63,696 bases of DNA from a virus (taxonomy: Duplodnaviria > Caudoviricetes), in the IMG/VR virus record IMGVR_UViG_3300049167_000064, positions 1 through 63,696 of that record; one strand, given 5' to 3'. Each line of letters opens with the position of its first letter. The stretch's first letter is position 1. Under the pieces are notes generated by a model that saw nothing but the letters and a program-made list of their open reading frames with translations, did not search any database and had not been told where the DNA came from. This document shows positions 3,871 to 57,888 of this stretch, piece after piece. The position numbers were made by a program, and so were the translations under genes.

Positions 3871-3945
3871 GGTCTCGTAGCTCAGCCTGGATAGAGCACC
3901 GGACTACGAATCCGGGTGGCGGAGGTTCGAATCCTTCCGGGACCA
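3871..3945 (+). tRNA. tRNA-Arg(ACG)
   Basis: Cloverleaf, anticodon arm CCGGA-CTACGAA-TCCGG, GGTTCGAATCC T arm. Confidence 0.93.
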
Positions 3946-4018
3946 CGTCAGGAACGGCACCGAGAGCGTATAGCGGTCGGGGTGCCCCGGGGCAGGGGTG
4001 ATGCGGTTCGCCTGCCGA

Positions 4019-4100
4019 CGTCGCGCGGTGTGAGGCAGTACACGCGCGCCGAAGAGCACACCCGGCGGTGTAATCGTGGGTTCAAATCCCACCGCGACGT
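4019..4100 (+). ncRNA. Atypical tRNA / pseudo-tRNA with 11-nt anticodon loop
   Basis: Acceptor CGTCGCG/CGCGACG, T arm GTGGG-TTCAAAT-CCCAC, anticodon stem CGCCG/CGGCG around AAGAGCACACC. Confidence 0.65.
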
Positions 4101-4103
4101 CAA

Positions 4104-4175
4104 GCCCCTGTAGCTCAGCGGAAGAGCGGCGTCCTCGTAAGACGCGGGTCACAGGTTCGAATCCTGTTGGGGGCT
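4104..4175 (+). tRNA. tRNA-Thr(CGT)
   Basis: Cloverleaf, GCGTC-CTCGTAA-GACGC anticodon arm. Confidence 0.93.
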
Positions 4176-4270
4176 CTGCTGTGGCGGTGCCCTGGGGCAG
4201 ACCGGGAGCTGCATAGAGGTCGTGGCCTAGCGGCGCGACGGCCGACACCCGGGCCTCACGGTCCGGACGA

Positions 4271-4341
4271 ATGGGCGTAGCTCAGTGGTAGAGCAGCGGT
4301 CTCCAAAACCGCCCGCGGAGGTTCGATTCCTCCCGCCTGTG
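4271..4341 (+). tRNA. tRNA-Trp(CCA)
   Basis: Cloverleaf, GCGGT-CTCCAAA-ACCGC anticodon arm. Confidence 0.92.
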
Positions 4342-4450
4342 CTTTCCGACGCTGACGCCTCCGCTCCGGAGGTCGGGTGAGCCTGATGCCTGTCACGAGG
4401 CGGACGGCGGGCCGAAGCGGTGCGTGACGCCGTGGAGGAAGGCAGCACAT

Positions 4451-4522
4451 TCCCCGTTGGTCCAATTGGCAGGACGCCAGGCTCTGGACCTGGAGGACGA
4501 GGTTCGAATCCTTGACGGGGAG
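4451..4522 (+). tRNA. tRNA-Gln(CTG)
   Basis: Cloverleaf, CCAGG-CTCTGGA-CCTGG anticodon arm. Confidence 0.92.
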
Positions 4523-4595
4523 CCGGTCGGGCGGTGTGTCCCAAGTCCGCAGGAGAAGAGCTCCGGAGTGCCGTAAAGGAGCGACCCGACCACAC

Positions 4596-4668
4596 CGGGA
4601 CGTAGTTCAGAGGTCAGAGCACCCGCTTTGGGAGCGGGGAGTCGGAGGTTCGAATCCTCCCGTCCCGA
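4596..4668 (+). tRNA. tRNA-Pro(TGG)
   Basis: Cloverleaf, CCCGC-TTTGGGA-GCGGG anticodon arm. Confidence 0.92.
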
Positions 4669-4762
4669 CAAACGACGAGCGCCCCCGAAGCTGTACACAT
4701 CGGGGGAGCTCAGTTCTTTACTCTACGCCCCGACGTCCGGGGTCCTACCCCCTGGAGTCAAA

Positions 4763-46412: not shown

Positions 46413-48899
46413 TTGAAGCTGACGGACATCCTGGCGCGACTGAGCGGCGTGGAGGAGGACCACGACGGATACCTAGCGCTCTGCCCCGCCCACAACGACA
46501 AGCGGCATCCGTCGCTGAAGCTCACGCTGAAGGAGGACGGAAAACTTCTGCTCGTCTGCCGTACAGGCTGCGACCGCGCGGACATCCTGCGGAAGCTGGA
46601 TCTGACGGCCTCCGACCTCTTCGACGTCGACGGCCAGGGCGCGCGCACCATCTCCGCGAAGGCGCCGGAGTCCGTTGGCGTTGCGGAGATCGCGGGACTT
46701 CGAGCCTTCGTCGACGAGACGGCCGACGCACTGACGACGTCGGACGAGGCCGTTGCCTACCTGGCTGACCGGTTCGGTATTACGCCGGAGCTGGCGGAGG
46801 ATCTGGGCGTAGGCTACGCGGCTCCCGGTCGTCGCTCTCAGCCGTGGCTCTCTCGCGGCTTCACGCGTTACCCGCGGGTGACGGTGCCGCTGGCCGGCTT
46901 CGACGGCGTGGTCCGCGGTCTGCAGGGACGAGACCTGTCGAAGAAGTGCCCCGCACGCTGGGTGTCCCTCGCGAATTTGGAGGGGAAGACGTGGGCAAAG
47001 TACGGCGTCCTGCGCTCCGGCGCCGGCTTCGACACGGTACTCATCTGCGAAGGCCCGGGGGACGCACTGACGGCCGTCGGAGCGGGCTACGACTCCGTGG
47101 CCATCCGCGGCGCAGGACTGGCCCGTAACGCCGCCCTTGTGGCGGAACTGGCGGACGGACTGCGGGACCTTGACGTCGTCATCGCCGGCGACAGGGACCG
47201 TGCGGGAGCCGGCTTCACGGACTCCCTGGCCGTCGCCCTCGTCCGCGCTGGCGTCATGGTGCGACGGCTCGAGATCCCTCGCGACGGGGACGACCTGACG
47301 GACTGGCGAGAGCACGACCCGGAAGCGTTCCCCGCGGCTCTGCACTCCGCCGTTCGCGCGGCCGTGGTCGTGGAGTTGGAGGCGGAGAAGCCGTCCCCTG
47401 CCCCGTCGACGGAGCCGGACGTCCCTGCCACGGATGCAGCGCTCGAAGTCATGTCGGAGTCCGCGCGACAGATGTTCAACAACACTGACGTGGGCATCGC
47501 CGTCATGCTGCGGGACTTCATGAACCGTGGTGGTGGGGGAGTGCGGTACGCCCCGGGTCTGGGCTTCCTCGTCTGGGACGGAAAGGTGTGGATCCGCAAC
47601 GACGCAAAAGTTCGCGAGGCACTACACCTGATGGGCGCCGAACTGATCGCGTCGGGTGATGACTCCATGCGCCGGCTGGCACTGAAGGCGTTGACGAACA
47701 GGAGCATTGACGCCGTCATCAAGGAACTTCCCTCCGTGCCCGGAGTGCCCGCTCGAGCGGAGGACTTCGACGCGCGGCCGGAGCTCCTCTCTGTCGCCAA
47801 CGGAACCGTGAACCTGCGCATGGGGACGATGCACCCGCACACCCCTGCGGACATGATCACGAAGCGTCTAGACGTCGCCTACTACCCGGAGGCGGAGGCT
47901 CCCCGCTGGAATCAGTTCCTGACGGAGATCTTCCCGAACCACCCGGAACTCCCGGCGTACATGCGCCGGCTCGTCGGCTACGGCATCACCGGCAGTACGT
48001 CAGAGGAGTGTTTCGCCTTCTTCTACGGAGACGGGAAGAACGGGAAGACGAAGTTCCTGGGTGCGCTCCTGCACACCTTCAAGGGCATCACGAAGTCAAC
48101 CGAATTCAGCACCTTCGAGACCCGCCCCACCATGGGGCAGGCATCGCCGGAGCTGGCTGCACTTCGCGGCGCCCGCCTCGTGACGGCCAGCGAAACGGAG
48201 AAGTACAGCCGCCTAGCGGAAGGTCTGATCAAACAACTGACTGGCGGAGACCCCGTTACAACCCGGGCGTTGTATCAGAACTCGTTCACCTACGTCCCGC
48301 AGTTCCTCTTGATGGTCGCAGGCAACTACCGGCCGGCCATCTTGTCGCAGGACTACGGAATCTGGCGACGGGTGAAGTTGATCCCGTTCGAAGCCTCCTT
48401 CAAGGGTGCGAAGGCGGACACAACCCTTGCGGCCAAGCTGGCTGCGGAGGCGGAGGGGATCCTCGCGTGGGCCGTCAGGGGCGCTCAGGAGTGGTACGCC
48501 ACCGGGCTCCAGGAGCCCGACACCGTTTACACAGCCACGCAGGACTACCGCGAATCAGAGGACCGGCTAGCCGAATTCATCGCGGCTCGACTCGTCCAGG
48601 AGGAGGGCGCTCGTGTGGCGCCCATGGCCGTCCGTCGCGCCTACGCGGAGTGGGCGGAGGACGCAGGGCTGAGCCGTAAGGAGATCCTTTCCGGCTGGGC
48701 ACTGGGAGTTGAGCTCGAATCTCGCGGCTTCACGAAGCGCCGTGTCTCCAGCCGTTGGGGCTTCGACGGTGTCCGACTCGCCACTGACGCAGAGATCCAG
48801 ACCGCTAGTCGACTGGCGGAGGGCGTCGACGAGGTGACCGACGAGCCATCCGGACCGACAGACATCTTCGGGCAGGAACGAGAGGAGGGAACCGCATGA
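46413..48899 (+). CDS. DNA primase-helicase (zinc finger, Toprim, D5/P4-type SF3 helicase)
   Basis: CPAH.D..PSL, ICEG..D, GDRD.AG, GDGKNGKT, IWRR. Confidence 0.93.
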   Translation: MKLTDILARLSGVEEDHDGYLALCPAHNDKRHPSLKLTLKEDGKLLLVCRTGCDRADILRKLDLTASDLFDVDGQGARTISAKAPESVGVAEIAGLRAFVDETADALTTSDEAVAYLADRFGITPELAEDLGVGYAAPGRRSQPWLSRGFTRYPRVTVPLAGFDGVVRGLQGRDLSKKCPARWVSLANLEGKTWAKYGVLRSGAGFDTVLICEGPGDALTAVGAGYDSVAIRGAGLARNAALVAELADGLRDLDVVIAGDRDRAGAGFTDSLAVALVRAGVMVRRLEIPRDGDDLTDWREHDPEAFPAALHSAVRAAVVVELEAEKPSPAPSTEPDVPATDAALEVMSESARQMFNNTDVGIAVMLRDFMNRGGGGVRYAPGLGFLVWDGKVWIRNDAKVREALHLMGAELIASGDDSMRRLALKALTNRSIDAVIKELPSVPGVPARAEDFDARPELLSVANGTVNLRMGTMHPHTPADMITKRLDVAYYPEAEAPRWNQFLTEIFPNHPELPAYMRRLVGYGITGSTSEECFAFFYGDGKNGKTKFLGALLHTFKGITKSTEFSTFETRPTMGQASPELAALRGARLVTASETEKYSRLAEGLIKQLTGGDPVTTRALYQNSFTYVPQFLLMVAGNYRPAILSQDYGIWRRVKLIPFEASFKGAKADTTLAAKLAAEAEGILAWAVRGAQEWYATGLQEPDTVYTATQDYRESEDRLAEFIAARLVQEEGARVAPMAVRRAYAEWAEDAGLSRKEILSGWALGVELESRGFTKRRVSSRWGFDGVRLATDAEIQTASRLAEGVDEVTDEPSGPTDIFGQEREEGTA

Positions 48900-53243: not shown

Positions 53244-53993
53244 ATGTCTGAGTACGTAGCCACGTGCACCGCCAGCCGCCACGACACCATCACCGCTGTA
53301 GGCGACGGAACAACCATCGAGCTCGCTGCCCGCTCCCACGGAGAGCGCAAGATGGAGACCTTCCTCTCCGCGGACAAGGCCCGCACCTTCGCGCGCGGCA
53401 TCCTGGCCCTGGCCGACAGGATCGACGGGGGAGAGGAGAAGGGCGAGGCGGAGTTCAGCGACACGCCCCCCGTCGGCACGCGTGTCCGCGTACTGGAGGC
53501 GTCCGGCATTCCAGCGGCCCGGGGAATGCTTGGCACGGTCTACGACCTCACCGACCAGCCGGGACGCCTGAAGGTGCTGATGGATGAGCCGTGGGACGGC
53601 TTCGGCTATCACAAGGTTTACGCGGACCGGTGGGAGATCGTCGACGAGCCGGCGCGACCCGTCAAGGTTGGGGACCGGGTGCGTGTCGTGCGGAACGCCT
53701 ACGACTACGAGGACCGTGGCTACGTCGGCCGCGTTGGCACCCTGAAGGTCATCGACACGGATGAGCAGCCGTACAGGGTGACCTTCGACGACGATGACTA
53801 CTGGTGGTGTGCGGAGGTCGAACTCGTCGACGAGGCACCCGACGCCGTATCGGCCCCGGAAGCGCCCGCCGTCGACAAGCCGGCCGACGAGCGCGAGACC
53901 TTCATCCGGCGGGCCGCGGACCTGGCGTCGGAGCTCGAGATCTTCGATGACAACGCCATCGTCTCGATGGCCCGCTTCCTGGCGGGGGAGTGA
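53244..53993 (+). CDS. Hypothetical protein with SH3-like repeats, C-terminus MARFLAGE
   Basis: Paralogous to 41427 and 53990 products. Confidence 0.75.
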   Translation: MSEYVATCTASRHDTITAVGDGTTIELAARSHGERKMETFLSADKARTFARGILALADRIDGGEEKGEAEFSDTPPVGTRVRVLEASGIPAARGMLGTVYDLTDQPGRLKVLMDEPWDGFGYHKVYADRWEIVDEPARPVKVGDRVRVVRNAYDYEDRGYVGRVGTLKVIDTDEQPYRVTFDDDDYWWCAEVELVDEAPDAVSAPEAPAVDKPADERETFIRRAADLASELEIFDDNAIVSMARFLAGE

Positions 53994-54292
53994 CGATGGC
54001 TGACATCAAGATCGGTGACCGGGTGCGGATCGTGTCGGAGTACACCGACCGTGCTGGCCGGCACGTAGGTCGGCTGGGTTCCGTGCGGCACGTCGACCCC
54101 GACGACCGCGAACTCCGTTACAGCGTCCTCATGGACGGCGACGAGGAATCCGATTGGTTCCATGAGGTGGAACTCGTCAGCGGGGTCGCGAATCGTGAAG
54201 CGCATGTCACCCGCGCGAAGGAGCTCCTGACGGGCACTCCGCACACGGTGGAGGACATCATCCGCATGGCCCGCTTCCTGGCCGGCGAGTAG
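53990..54292 (+). CDS. Paralog of the C-terminal half of the preceding gene
   Basis: IKIGDRVRIV...EVELV...MARFLAGE. Confidence 0.75.
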   Translation: MTMADIKIGDRVRIVSEYTDRAGRHVGRLGSVRHVDPDDRELRYSVLMDGDEESDWFHEVELVSGVANREAHVTRAKELLTGTPHTVEDIIRMARFLAGE

Positions 54293-54333
54293 GACGACAG
54301 GGCCCGGGGCGCTTGCTCCGGGCCCTTCGTGTT

Positions 54334-54394
54334 GCTCCGCTAGTCGACTAGCGGAGCTAGGGGGTTGTGTCGGCCGACCAATGTGTGTCATAGT
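54334..54394 (+). promoter_or_regulatory. 24-bp palindrome plus class A promoter
   Basis: GCTCCGCTAGTCGACTAGCGGAGC, then TTGTGT-N18-CATAGT with GTCGGCCGAC box. Confidence 0.75.
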
Positions 54395-54431
54395 GGAGAT
54401 CCGCCAGGGACTAACGGAACTGGCGGAACAA

Positions 54432-54641
54432 CTCAACAGGGAGCGGCAGCAAGGCGAGAACGACTCTGGTGGAGTCAAGAGGCGCCCCGTAAGGGAGACG
54501 TCGCAACGGCGTGCTGGGTAAGAACCTTGGCAGTCACGGTGACCCGTAGCCCATACGGTAGGGCAGGGTGTGGCTGGAGGGATGGATACTCCAAACCAGG
54601 CTGAGGACATGAATCGCTAAGCACCACCGCTCCCTGTTGGG
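54432..54641 (+). ncRNA. Candidate ~210-nt structured RNA
   Basis: 15-bp closing helix 54432-54446/54627-54641 enclosing several hairpins. Confidence 0.65.
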
Positions 54642-54676
54642 GACTCCACGGACAGGCCGAGACGAGGGAGCCGTCA

Positions 54677-55051
54677 ATGAGCTACCAGCGGGCGCACCGC
54701 TACTGCGGCGGAAAGGGTGAGGTGCCCCGGGCGTCCGGTATCCCTGGCTTCTGCTTCGCATGCAACGGGACCGGAAAGATCACCGTGTACACCGCAGCCG
54801 AGAAGGCTGTTCGACAGGCTGAACGTAGCCGGTGGGACTCCACCCGAGAGCTGGTGCGGTCCCACGCCCGGAAGATCACGGCCCCTGACGGTGTGCCTTC
54901 CCTGACGTTCTCGCTTGACGTCCGCGCCGGCTTCGAGACGCTGGCCGAACGAGAGCCAGACCGCTTGGAGAAGTTGTACGCCTCGTTGGACGCTGGCCGT
55001 ATCGACGACGTCGTTTATGCCCTGTACGAGTACCGCAAGGGTCACGCGTAG
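54677..55051 (+). CDS. Hypothetical protein with DnaJ-like CxxCxGxG motif
   Basis: GGGAG RBS; CFACNGTG. Confidence 0.75.
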   Translation: MSYQRAHRYCGGKGEVPRASGIPGFCFACNGTGKITVYTAAEKAVRQAERSRWDSTRELVRSHARKITAPDGVPSLTFSLDVRAGFETLAEREPDRLEKLYASLDAGRIDDVVYALYEYRKGHA

Positions 55052-55112
55052 CCGAAACGCCCTCCGGGGCGTCGGGTGAGGAATGGTCTCCCACCCCTGA
55101 CGAGGCAGACCA
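55051..55112 (+). ncRNA. Type II hammerhead ribozyme 1 (predicted cleavage after C55073)
   Basis: GCC-GAAAC-stem III-GTC-stem I-CTGACGA-GGC; loop TGGTCT pairs with downstream AGACCA. Confidence 0.88.
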
Positions 55113-55123
55113 CTGGAGGAGAG

Positions 55124-55288
55124 ATGAAGGTCAAGGCGATGAAGCGGACGTTCCTCCGGACGCACCGGTTCGGGATGTTGCGCCAGGCGGACGAGAAGCG
55201 CAGGGCCGGCGCGGAGCGCAACGTCCGCAGCCCGCAGGGGCGGGAGCTGATCGCGTCGAACATGGTCTACCGCAAGCGCTACGCGTAG
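55124..55288 (+). CDS. Small basic protein (54 aa) between ribozymes
   Basis: GGAGGAGAG-ATG. Confidence 0.7.
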   Translation: MKVKAMKRTFLRTHRFGMLRQADEKRRAGAERNVRSPQGRELIASNMVYRKRYA

Positions 55289-55350
55289 CCGAAACGCCCT
55301 CCGGGGCGTCGCGCGGGAGATGGCCTCCCGCCCCTGATGAGGCAGGCCGT
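55288..55350 (+). ncRNA. Type II hammerhead ribozyme 2 (predicted cleavage after C55310)
   Basis: GCC-GAAAC-stem III-GTC-stem I-CTGATGA-GGC; loop ATGGCCT pairs with AGGCCGT. Confidence 0.88.
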
Positions 55351-55360
55351 AGGAGGAGAG

Positions 55361-55657
55361 ATGGGAGCAACACCGAGAATGACGGCACTGGAGTCGGCAC
55401 GCGTGCAGAAGATCATGGATGGCGTCCGAGGCATTCCGGACCCTGACCACGAGCACGACCTCAACCCCGAGCACGCCGTCTTCGACGCTGACGGCGCGGT
55501 GTTGCAGCGCGGCATCTCTGACGAGTACGCCGCGCAGGACGCCGCCGAGACCTGGCGCACGACCTACTACCGTCCCGACGCCTGGTCCGGAGAACTCTGC
55601 AACGACTACCGCGACCACCCGCGCGAGGTCTGCGGCGAGCATCACGAACTTGGGTAG
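55361..55657 (+). CDS. Hypothetical protein (98 aa)
   Basis: GGAGGAGAG-ATG. Confidence 0.7.
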   Translation: MGATPRMTALESARVQKIMDGVRGIPDPDHEHDLNPEHAVFDADGAVLQRGISDEYAAQDAAETWRTTYYRPDAWSGELCNDYRDHPREVCGEHHELG

Positions 55658-55665
55658 CGAAGTCC

Positions 55666-55742
55666 GCCCCGCTACGGCATCGCCCGATCTACCCGGCACC
55701 CCCAGTGCCGGCGGGCGCGCGGTTCGAATCCGCGGCGGGGTA
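55666..55742 (+). ncRNA. D-armless tRNA-like element
   Basis: Acceptor GCCCCGC/GCGGGGT, U8-A9, T arm CGCGG-TTCGAAT-CCGCG. Confidence 0.7.
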
Positions 55743-55775
55743 CTCGAAGCACCATCCATCGACGGAGAGGACGTC

Positions 55776-56054
55776 ATGACCTCCTACCTTCGCAACTGCG
55801 CCGGATGCGGCGGATCGTTCGCCACGGGCGACGGCGTCTCTGACTCGTACTTCTGCCCGAAGTGCCACAAGGGCAACGTCGAAAAGTTCGCCCCGAAGGT
55901 GTCCAACGTCGTCGAGTTGCTGAGTCAGCCCCGGAGCCGGTACGTCGTGCTCGCGGTCGACGAGGGGGAGTTCACGATCCGCCGGCTTGGGTTTCCGGAG
56001 GGCCCGACCCTAGCGGTGCGTGAAGCACACCTGAACCCCGCTGTCTGCCGCTGA
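55776..56054 (+). CDS. Zinc-finger hypothetical protein
   Basis: CAGC...CPKC; GGAGAGG RBS. Confidence 0.7.
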   Translation: MTSYLRNCAGCGGSFATGDGVSDSYFCPKCHKGNVEKFAPKVSNVVELLSQPRSRYVVLAVDEGEFTIRRLGFPEGPTLAVREAHLNPAVCR

Positions 56055-57030: not shown

Positions 57031-57038
57031 CGATGGGG

Positions 57039-57069
57039 GTTGTGTCGGCCGACACAACTGTGTCATAGT
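57039..57069 (+). promoter_or_regulatory. Class A promoter with perfect 20-bp operator
   Basis: GTTGTGTCGGCCGACACAAC; TTGTGT-N18-CATAGT. Confidence 0.8.
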
Positions 57070-57115
57070 GAGCCACGCCAGGGACTTACGGAAGTCCAAA
57101 GGAAGAGGAGACATC

Positions 57116-57793
57116 ATGAAGGCCATCGACGACATCACCCGCACTGCGGAGGACGCGCTTTACGAGGGCTTCGACTTCGGTTACGACGAGCGCCCGCTCG
57201 TCGCGGGGGAACTGGGCGCGGGCGTCCTGGCCCCGATCGACGGGGAGCGGGAACCCTTCGACGACACGGAACTCGTGAACGCGGTCGACAAGCCCGACTG
57301 GTTGGTCGCGGCCGGCTTCTGAGCCGGTCATCTGGAGCCCCTGCCAATTGCGGAGGCGGGGGCTCCTCCTCCTGAACCACTTGGCACTGACGAAGGAGTC
57401 AGCCATGGAAACCACACCCTTCATCGTCCAGGACGTCACCGTCGACGCGATCAACATCCTGGCCGGCGACGTCTTCGAGCGTCACGGCAAGACGTGGACC
57501 GCCCGTTTCAACGCCCGCCACTCCGGCCGCTGGACGGCGATCGTCATCACGGAGACCGGAACGGTCTGGCTCTCCGTCGACGACGAGATCACCGTTAAGC
57601 GCACTGTGAGGAGGCGCCCGTGTTCCGCGTAAGCTTCGAGTGGGGCGGCTCGACCCTCGTCGACGTCGTGGCCTACCGGTGCTTCATCCGGGAGGCGTAC
57701 ACGAAGGGATGGCCGCGGACGAAGGTCCCTCGTGGATACGTGGTGACGCTCCCCTCCGGCCGGCTCGTCGCGCTGCTGAAGGAGCTCCGCTAG
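57116..57793 (+). other. Three small hypothetical genes (57116-57322, 57405-57632, 57620-57793)
   Basis: RBSs; the last stop codon lies inside the palindrome at 57787-57804. Confidence 0.65.
57334..57366 (+). terminator. Hairpin with AATTGCGGA loop
   Basis: GGAGCCCCTGCC/GGCGGGGGCTCC. Confidence 0.7.
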
Positions 57794-57854
57794 TCGACTA
57801 GCGGAAGTTGTCGGCCGATGCCTCTTGTGTCGGCCGACACAGCTATGTCATAGT
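57787..57854 (+). promoter_or_regulatory. Palindrome plus class A promoter
   Basis: CCGCTAGTCGACTAGCGG; TTGTGT(57825)-N18-CATAGT. Confidence 0.78.
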
Positions 57855-57888
57855 GAGGGCAACGCAAGGGACTGACGGAGGAGAGACC

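Follow-up and report, generated by a model that had tools for sequence, protein, structure and literature searches.

Positions 54334-56054 of the IMG/VR virus record IMGVR_UViG_3300049167_000064 (below called the window: the whole record of 63,696 bp, estimated by CheckV to be complete) raise the question of why a single phage operon carries structured RNAs of several kinds between its small genes. The initial annotation had listed here an operator, a promoter, a structured RNA of about 210 nt and four open reading frames (ORFs) separated by two hammerhead ribozymes and a tRNA-like element, and had proposed one system in which the transcript is cut into monocistronic RNAs. All of these items were recovered, at the same coordinates or a few bases off. 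Comparison with related Streptomyces phages and prophages makes it probable that the transcript of this operon is divided by self-cleaving and host-cleaved RNA modules and headed by an unrelated structured leader.

Hammerhead ribozymes and a tRNA-like element between the ORFs

The two hammerheads, HH1 (55050-55114, predicted cut at 55073/55074) and HH2 (55287-55351, predicted cut at 55310/55311), lie on the plus strand and scored 50.0 and 47.1 bits, respectively, with the Rfam family Hammerhead_II (RF02276, cut-off 37), corresponding to E-values of 2.8e-07 and 1.6e-06 in the window, where no other such match was found. Their catalytic cores are intact (CUGACGA and CUGAUGA, GAAA), both carry a GUC cleavage triplet at the sites for which cleavage had been predicted in the initial annotation, and their topology is that of type II, with stems I and III closed by loops and stem II open. 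Each ribozyme has its 5' end on the stop codon of the preceding ORF, and its 3' tail, which pairs with loop I to form a pseudoknot, runs directly into GGAGGAG and the next ATG, the tail of HH1 entering the ribosome binding site (RBS). Among 19 hammerhead copies of this phage group 95.9% of the cells were paired, compared to 41-47% in slid controls: four pairs of stem I were changed on both sides, the 3 bp of stem II were 100% paired, and the six pairs of the pseudoknot between loop I and the 3' tail were 97.4% paired. One pseudoknot pair switches between C-G (11 copies), U-A (7) and U-G (1), and exactly this switch separates HH1 from HH2. Both ribozymes lie within a 96-nt direct repeat (55031-55126 and 55268-55363, 84% identical), which also extends over the final six codons of two ORFs that are otherwise unrelated.

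Among the self-cleaving ribozymes of bacteria the hammerhead is the most common, and its role in prophages has so far been guesswork. HH1 and HH2 flank, on one strand, the 54-aa ORF o54 (55124-55288, plus strand), an arrangement typical of hammerhead-punctuated prophages. Eight of 151 sampled Streptomyces genomes contained a Hammerhead_II match, which was above the cut-off in seven. One Streptomyces genome carried 17 same-strand type II hammerheads in 10.3 kb (L152, G047:C21:49500-62500; loci are referred to by L numbers), with a hammerhead before nearly every one of about 16 ORFs (83-270 aa) and the same RBS context after each, and another carried nine in about 9 kb (L153, G133:C34:58500-69500). 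A 23-nt segment of stem III of HH1 and HH2 had exact matches in 94 IMG/VR contigs. Stretches of 57-72 nt with 78-80% identity to HH1 were also seen in the phages VieEnRose, Celia, Urza, Itza, Tefunt, Haizum and Nishikigoi (records with such stretches include ON526983, MN062705, MN234189, MT310862, NC_054665 and others), mostly underneath a coding sequence (CDS) annotated as "hypothetical protein" or "membrane protein"; judged by this overlap, these CDS of cultured Streptomyces phages may be miscalled.

The last junction of the stretch holds the tRNA-like element (TL; 55666-55752, plus strand). ARAGORN called a tRNA-Gly(ccc) at 55666-55743, with the discriminator A at 55742, in line with the tRNA-like fold noticed in the initial annotation. 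The Rfam tRNA model (RF00005, cut-off 29 bits) gave no match to 55666-55743 even at E-values up to 10, and it called none of the TL copies in 28 related loci a tRNA. TL has a 7-bp acceptor stem, a joining strand of 8-9 nt with a near-invariant AGG in place of the D-arm, a long arm of 4-5 plus 7 bp with an internal loop and the terminal loop CCCCA or CCCCCA, and a T-arm with a 5-bp stem and the loop UUCGAAU; the discriminator A follows, and a trailer before the RBS is common to most copies. Of the features of a canonical tRNA, the paired acceptor stem (98.6%) and T stem (100%) were present in 30 distinct sequences, and those lacking were the D-arm (no conserved pairing) and the 5-bp anticodon stem with a 7-nt loop and U33.

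Copies of TL were collected first by exact-word scans, which yielded 9 viral contigs and 11 Streptomyces genome contigs, and then with a covariance model, R1. The resulting family, from Streptomyces phages and prophages, comprises 31 aligned full-length copies (61.8-107.5 bits with R1) as well as shorter forms. The window copy scored 100.4 bits with this model, two of the five tRNAs of the window scored 19.9-21.7 bits, and the other three were unlisted at E-values up to 1; these five genuine tRNA genes (Arg-ACG, Thr-CGU, Trp-CCA, Gln-CUG and Pro-UGG), each with 61-67 bits in Rfam, lie far from TL at 3871-4669. The alignment of the 31 members is 96.4% paired and contains three covarying pairs, located in the long arm. 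In phage AbbeyMikolon the TL (L149 2479-2552, gt01; 68 bits), annotated there as tRNA-Gly, shows compensatory changes in the acceptor stem, the T stem and the outer arm, encodes CCA and has its own terminator downstream. In phage Samy an unannotated copy lies at 47872-47949, inside the prophage. In the short forms (42-61 nt), which occupy equivalent slots, the acceptor stem and the hairpin next to it are retained, with letters that differ yet pair; in one locus (L061), a stretch of 1 kb holds a full form together with two short ones. An acceptor-like stem, GCCCCGG/CCGGGG, around two small hairpins was moreover seen after the homologue of the 54-aa ORF in L021 (9018-9090) and L103 (11731-11805), and R1 missed it; the model probably underestimates the breadth of the tRNA-like superfamily. 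No description of the TL family was found in the literature.

It is very improbable that TL is merely a decayed tRNA gene, or the remnant of an attachment site, without present function. The ARAGORN call as tRNA-Gly(ccc) would fit such an origin, as would the weak likeness of host tRNA-Glu(CUC) genes to the TL model (39-43 bits with R1), a possible hint as to where the element came from. However, the TL copies of the window and of Samy share about 90% identity in the midst of flanking DNA without detectable similarity, and the pairing of the element is maintained by compensatory changes. According to passages of the description of Samy (PMC11302927), this phage has a serine integrase and a 12-nt att repeat at its ends, and TL is internal. 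TL as attP was ruled out, since the Samy copy lies inside the prophage, away from the att repeat. The trailer as a general host tRNA trailer was rejected as well, as only 1 of the 76 host tRNA-Glu, tRNA-Gln and tRNA-Arg genes examined carries it.

Exchange of RNA modules at equivalent junctions

A survey of relatives, suggested in the initial annotation, showed that the order ORF, hammerhead, ORF, (hammerhead, ORF,) TL, ORF recurs. Two hammerheads followed by TL, as in the window, were found in L045, L114 and L130, and one hammerhead followed by TL in L008, L012, L021, L059, L067, L088, L096, L103, L109, L112, L113, L129 and L131. Placement was constant in the window and 15 loci, where 1-10 nt separate the elements from the preceding stop codon and 10-25 nt from the following start codon, in positions at which cutting would release single-gene mRNAs. 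Strong TL matches were present in 4 of the 151 sampled Streptomyces genomes, one of which had been the search centre; this genome has a sub-threshold hammerhead, and all three others carry above-cut-off hammerheads 230-1040 nt upstream on the same strand. At least 8 of the 20 TL-pattern loci had an upstream hammerhead (7/18 by Rfam and one by pattern), a lower bound because some loci are incomplete, and a full TL was present in 12 of the 94 contigs found via the hammerhead word.

The element at a given junction was not fixed. In the window and in L129 a hammerhead precedes the 54-aa ORF o54; TL is found there in L021, L103 and L117, and a promoter-like motif (see below) in L106 and L108. The ORF is followed by HH2 in the window and by TL in L106. 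Collinearity of L129 with the window extends through HH1 and o54 and ends 12 nt into the next hammerhead, at which point TL sets in. As judged from this alignment, TL takes the place of a hammerhead at one orthologous junction. Promoter, hammerhead and TL would each provide a new 5' end shortly before an RBS, and it is this shared property that constitutes the main argument for processing of the transcript.

In the model that we favour, the hammerheads would cut themselves, so that the upstream message would end in the stem III hairpin with a cyclic phosphate at its 3' end, and the downstream message would carry a 5'-OH, the stem I hairpin and the RBS. TL, whose acceptor and T stems would stack into a 12-bp helix of the kind taken by RNase P and RNase Z, would be excised by host tRNA enzymes, by RNase P at its 5' end and by RNase Z or a similar enzyme past the discriminator, and its excision would sever the message as well. 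In vivo, such cutting would set mRNA stability or dosage for each small gene.

Two other explanations of the modules were considered. According to the first, the elements are neutral or selfish passengers, or linkers that promote shuffling of the small genes by recombination at the DNA level, with RNA cutting having no tuned role in expression. Patchy presence among close relatives could be explained in this way, as could the identity of the 23-nt hammerhead segment in so many viral contigs, the extension of the 96-nt repeat into the coding ends of unrelated ORFs and the fact that the swap in L129 breaks inside shared letters. We nevertheless regard this explanation as quite unlikely: the catalytic core is kept and the stems and the pseudoknot vary in a compensatory manner, which would not be expected from selection on DNA identity, the placement relative to stop codon and RBS is constant, and it is difficult to regard as neutral the arrays in which 17 and 9 hammerheads of one strand occupy junction after junction.

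According to the second, TL is chiefly a functional small RNA, such as a stable, CCA-receiving tRNA mimic that engages tRNA-directed enzymes or defences of the host, as their decoy or their substrate, and severing of the message is a side effect. The near invariance of the CCCC(C)A loop and of the AGG in the joining strand throughout the 31 members points in this direction, and so do the AbbeyMikolon copy, which with its encoded CCA and own terminator resembles a stand-alone gene, and the syntenic position of TL, one to three genes before a peptidase block in many relatives. As the chief role of the element this is unlikely, given that short forms without the long arm and its loop occupy equivalent junctions, that TL substitutes for a hammerhead at an orthologous junction, and that most copies are squeezed between a stop codon and an RBS without a promoter or terminator of their own.

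The leader RNA, its control region and the independent inheritance of the modules

Upstream of the first ORF, 282 nt without coding signal extend from the promoter to the ORF and include a structured leader RNA of 210 nt (54432-54641, plus strand), no frame of which shows coding-type third-position GC content (GC3). The leader is closed by a 15-bp helix with the centre AGGGAG/CUCCCU, and its minimum free energy is unusually low (z = -3.0; 0/200 shuffles equally stable). Homologues were found in L006 (85% identical; L102 and L120 belong to this contig, too) and in L150, a contig related to Ibantik, a lytic Streptomyces phage. The three copies span two unrelated phage lineages and all end about 20 nt upstream of an RBS and start codon, the gene downstream being a different one in L150. 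In the three-way alignment the 65 predicted pairs were 98.9% paired, and 17 of them were changed on both sides as compared to 0-2 in slid controls, figures that are flattered because the structure was derived from the same three sequences. Ten of these 17 pairs belong to the closing helix, whose alignment is shifted out of register, and the cleaner evidence comes from the seven in inner helices; an earlier fold from two sequences had contained no compensatory pairs. Long unpaired stretches are identical in all three homologues, and the centre of the closing helix is constant with covarying flanks.

A covariance model of the leader, R2 (249.8 bits), recovered the three known copies and no others from 122 loci. 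In searches limited to the element, no Rfam family matched (noise only, at E-values above 3), BLAST against 50,697 phage records gave no match at E-values up to 1, and BLAST against 401 Streptomyces genomes gave only seven partial matches of 24-52 nt (E-values of 8.6e-4 to 0.01). R2 had no match in 151 Streptomyces genomes, an empty answer that is weakly informative, and nothing above 10.4 bits, with filters off, in 16 kb of Ibantik, the closest cultured relative of L150; neither of two scans of metagenome contigs for exact words returned a match. The BLAST search of the 401 genomes and the R2 search of the 151 genomes also ruled out that the leader is a multicopy inverted-repeat transposon. 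A conserved structured domain in the 5' untranslated region, directly before an RBS, is what is expected of a cis-regulatory RNA, and on these comparative grounds the leader is a sound candidate for a new structured RNA, which may serve as a translational switch or as a 5' stabiliser.

A more specific reading makes the leader the regulated part of the operon, either as a riboswitch-like or protein-binding RNA in which the closing helix keeps an anti-Shine-Dalgarno (anti-SD) strand off the true SD, or as a self-cleaving or RNase III-cut 5' module. It draws on the covarying helices and the long invariant unpaired stretches of the three homologues, on their position directly before RBS and start codon in two unrelated lineages, and on the AGGGAG/CUCCCU centre, kept between covarying flanks, whose 5' strand repeats the 7-mer that forms the SD of the first ORF (54664-54670, plus strand). 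This reading appears somewhat unlikely, as the anti-SD:SD hairpin is predicted in one of the three homologues only, three sequences are all there are, and the neighbouring genes suggest no ligand or partner. On the reverse strand of L150, downstream of its leader, a GC-rich hairpin with a T-rich tail was seen after each small gene, and a repeated TTGATTCGAGACC motif upstream of the next RBS, a different mode of punctuation in this small-gene operon.

The control region precedes the leader. A terminator-like hairpin (54300-54333, plus strand; 11 bp, loop GCUU, T-rich tail), part of which (54311-54323) was flagged by a terminator scan, ends the upstream unit. It is followed by a perfect 24-nt palindrome (54334-54357, unstranded), the operator of the initial annotation, of which the window holds eight copies at up to three mismatches and 100 shuffles none. 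In a comparison of 151 loci its 18-nt core was shared by no more than two close relatives, one represented by L091/L105 (a single contig) and the other by L111. The conserved inverted repeats of phiC31 are many near-identical intergenic palindromes per phage that only close relatives share, and the window palindrome is alike in being present in many copies and in its restriction to close relatives; from its distribution, it fits a candidate repressor operator of one immunity group. The promoter proposed in the initial annotation corresponds to a recurring, phage-specific motif (54360-54426, plus strand; about 50 recurring nt within 54360-54418) and not to a sigma-70 consensus, for which a scan gave no match, so that its promoter role is put forward here from recurrence and position. 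The motif consists of TTGTGT, an inner palindrome, CATAGT and a conserved AGGGACTNACGGA box within a small 5' hairpin, and its three copies in the window (at about 54360, 57035 and 57820) each lie upstream of a gene start; a similar motif precedes the o54 homologue in L106. The further copies were seen at 57035-57090 and 57784-57870, the second again preceded by the palindrome, and with three copies of the motif there would be three short transcription units in 3.5 kb. Transcription would most likely start at this phage-specific promoter beside the repressor-type palindrome.

The single system proposed in the initial annotation was not borne out, as the four kinds of element are not passed on as a set. 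L006 has the leader, which is absent from L004 and L005, where the promoter region adjoins the RBS directly; L007 carries two hammerheads, and Samy carries TL only. These comparisons, together with the loci listed next, indicate that the elements are interchangeable modules gained and lost independently rather than one co-inherited system.

Several results weigh against the processing model. L004-L006, whose first ORF is the closest to that of the window (72-81% identity), have neither hammerhead nor TL, and the leader hosts L006 and L150 have no TL by R1 and no hammerhead (searched for with Rfam in L006 and with just a simple pattern in L150). The statement that every gene junction holds an RNA element was correct inside the stretch and did not extend to the next three junctions of the same operon (56054/56067, 56216/56219 and 56410/56413), which are without any. 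The fold of TL taken alone is not unusually stable (z = -1.29; 23/200 shuffles fold as well), and the evidence for this element is therefore comparative; there, neither the acceptor stem nor the T stem varies among the 31 members, in part an effect of sampling, since an exact 31-34-nt pattern taken from this region had been used to find 20 of the source loci, and the covariation score is modest (0.068) for that reason. The CCCC(C)A loop, the long arm, and the CCA and terminator of the AbbeyMikolon copy suggest that TL has a function beyond that of a cut site. For the leader, the alternative anti-SD:SD pairing is the predicted fold in one of only three homologues. Finally, the seven sequencing runs listed as containing window DNA are all of DNA type and none is of RNA, so that, for modules whose identity, integrity, conservation and exchangeability can be read directly from the compared loci, we infer the cutting in vivo, its extent and its effect.

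Genomic setting, known systems and significance

The best explanation of the stretch is that a transcription unit begins here, within the variable region of small genes in a Streptomyces phage of the phiC31/Samy type. The window has a GC content of 66%, and among 50,697 phage records Streptomyces phage Samy, described in PMC11302927 as a relative of phiC31, was the only DNA match. The gene order around 54334-56054 is common to the window, Samy and many Streptomyces prophages: a sigma factor, two paralogous ORFs, the variable small-gene stretch, a 50-aa ORF and an exported peptidase, the variable region being flanked by the phage sigma-factor block and the exported-peptidase block. In the window the two paralogues are located at 53244-53993 and 53990-54292, and both match phrog_22674 and phrog_2827; they have a common MARFLAGE C-terminal tail and were seen in one to three copies per relative. 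The four small ORFs, all on the plus strand and with GC3 values of 0.79-1.0, encode proteins of 124 aa with CxxCxGxG-type cysteine motifs (54677-55051; relatives with 58-81% identity in L004-L007), 54 aa (o54, very basic, GC3 1.0; homologues with 76-79% identity in L021, L103, L106, L108, L117 and L129), 98 aa (55361-55657) and 92 aa with zinc-ribbon-like CxxC pairs (55776-56054). At the thresholds applied, none of the four matched a Pfam or PHROG family, the 92-aa ORF showing a weak, sub-threshold Pfam zinc-ribbon match.

Division of a transcript at structured RNAs has several precedents. In phage T7, RNase III sites lie between the early genes, and structured intergenic cuts likewise produce single-gene mRNAs with protective terminal hairpins; there, however, a host double-strand RNase cuts, whereas self-cleavage and, by our model, tRNA-processing enzymes would do so in the window. 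Punctuation by tRNAs is the model for mitochondrial transcripts, and in bacteria and phages, too, tRNAs are co-transcribed with mRNAs. As in that case, a tRNA-shaped fold abuts coding sequence, and excision by RNase P and a 3' enzyme would split the messages, but TL is not a working tRNA by the tests made (no D-arm, a 5-6-nt loop, failure in Rfam) and, unlike punctuating tRNAs, it alternates with self-cleaving ribozymes. In shape TL resembles the tRNA-like domain of transfer-messenger RNA (tmRNA) and D-armless tRNAs, with the acceptor stacked on the T-arm, a single strand for the D-arm and a long helix in the place of the anticodon arm; it differs from tmRNA in its length of about 77 nt and in lacking a tag reading frame (ARAGORN: no tmRNA) and G3:U70. 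Synthetic biology uses RiboJ hammerhead insulators and tRNA-spaced guide arrays, in which a hammerhead or tRNA before each cistron similarly gives defined, context-independent 5' ends; those parts are engineered, whereas the arrangement in the window is natural.

Among phage RNAs, the theta (HDV-like) ribozymes of gut phages described by Kienbeck et al. 2024 (PMC10879173) adjoin genuine phage tRNAs and are linked to recoding. They too are small self-cleaving ribozymes beside tRNA-shaped RNAs in phage genomes, and they differ in ribozyme class and in the phages concerned, the elements of the window lying between protein genes. The closest precedent is that of Perreault et al. 2011 (PMC3088659), in which clustered prophage hammerheads flank single genes or short blocks and were proposed to process transcripts to gene-length mRNAs; tandem prophage hammerheads cleaved in vitro, and one set did so in vivo. 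The window shares with these clusters the same-strand type II hammerheads, the pseudoknot between loop and tail and the idea of transcript cutting. The clusters of that study comprise up to three hammerheads, and its relevant passages describe neither a tRNA-like partner nor a module swap of the kind found here; they name no Streptomyces case, although the supplementary alignments may list some (PMC3088659). The arrays of 17 and 9 hammerheads in L152 and L153 far exceed these triple clusters (PMC3088659). The remark in the initial annotation that no described phage operon combining these elements was known thus holds in part only, namely for the tRNA-like partner, on which no paper was found, since hammerhead clusters in prophages, and with them hammerhead punctuation of prophage genes, are already known (PMC3088659).

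What appears to be undescribed are the tRNA-like module, its exchange with hammerheads and the leader RNA. A tRNA-shaped element that is likely a substrate of RNase P, a trans-acting ribozyme, replaces a self-cleaving ribozyme at the same junction, and a promoter likewise stands in the hammerhead's place before the same gene, o54. The occurrence of TL and a promoter in a hammerhead slot yields a testable argument that their shared function is to provide a fresh mRNA end before each small gene. TL and the leader are two candidate RNA families; the first has members in cultured phages, annotated as tRNA-Gly in AbbeyMikolon and unannotated in Samy, and the second is a rare RNA of complex fold, a kind of RNA that has proved to be a riboswitch or ribozyme before. 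Taken further, and put forward tentatively, the small-gene operons of Streptomyces phages may represent a natural kit of interchangeable 5'-end generators, namely promoter, hammerhead and an RNase P-cut D-armless tRNA mimic, that includes two undescribed classes of RNA; in such a kit the mimic might also persist as a stable CCA-bearing decoy, and the leader would be a new RNA of complex fold, regulatory or catalytic in nature, through which translation of the first gene is gated.

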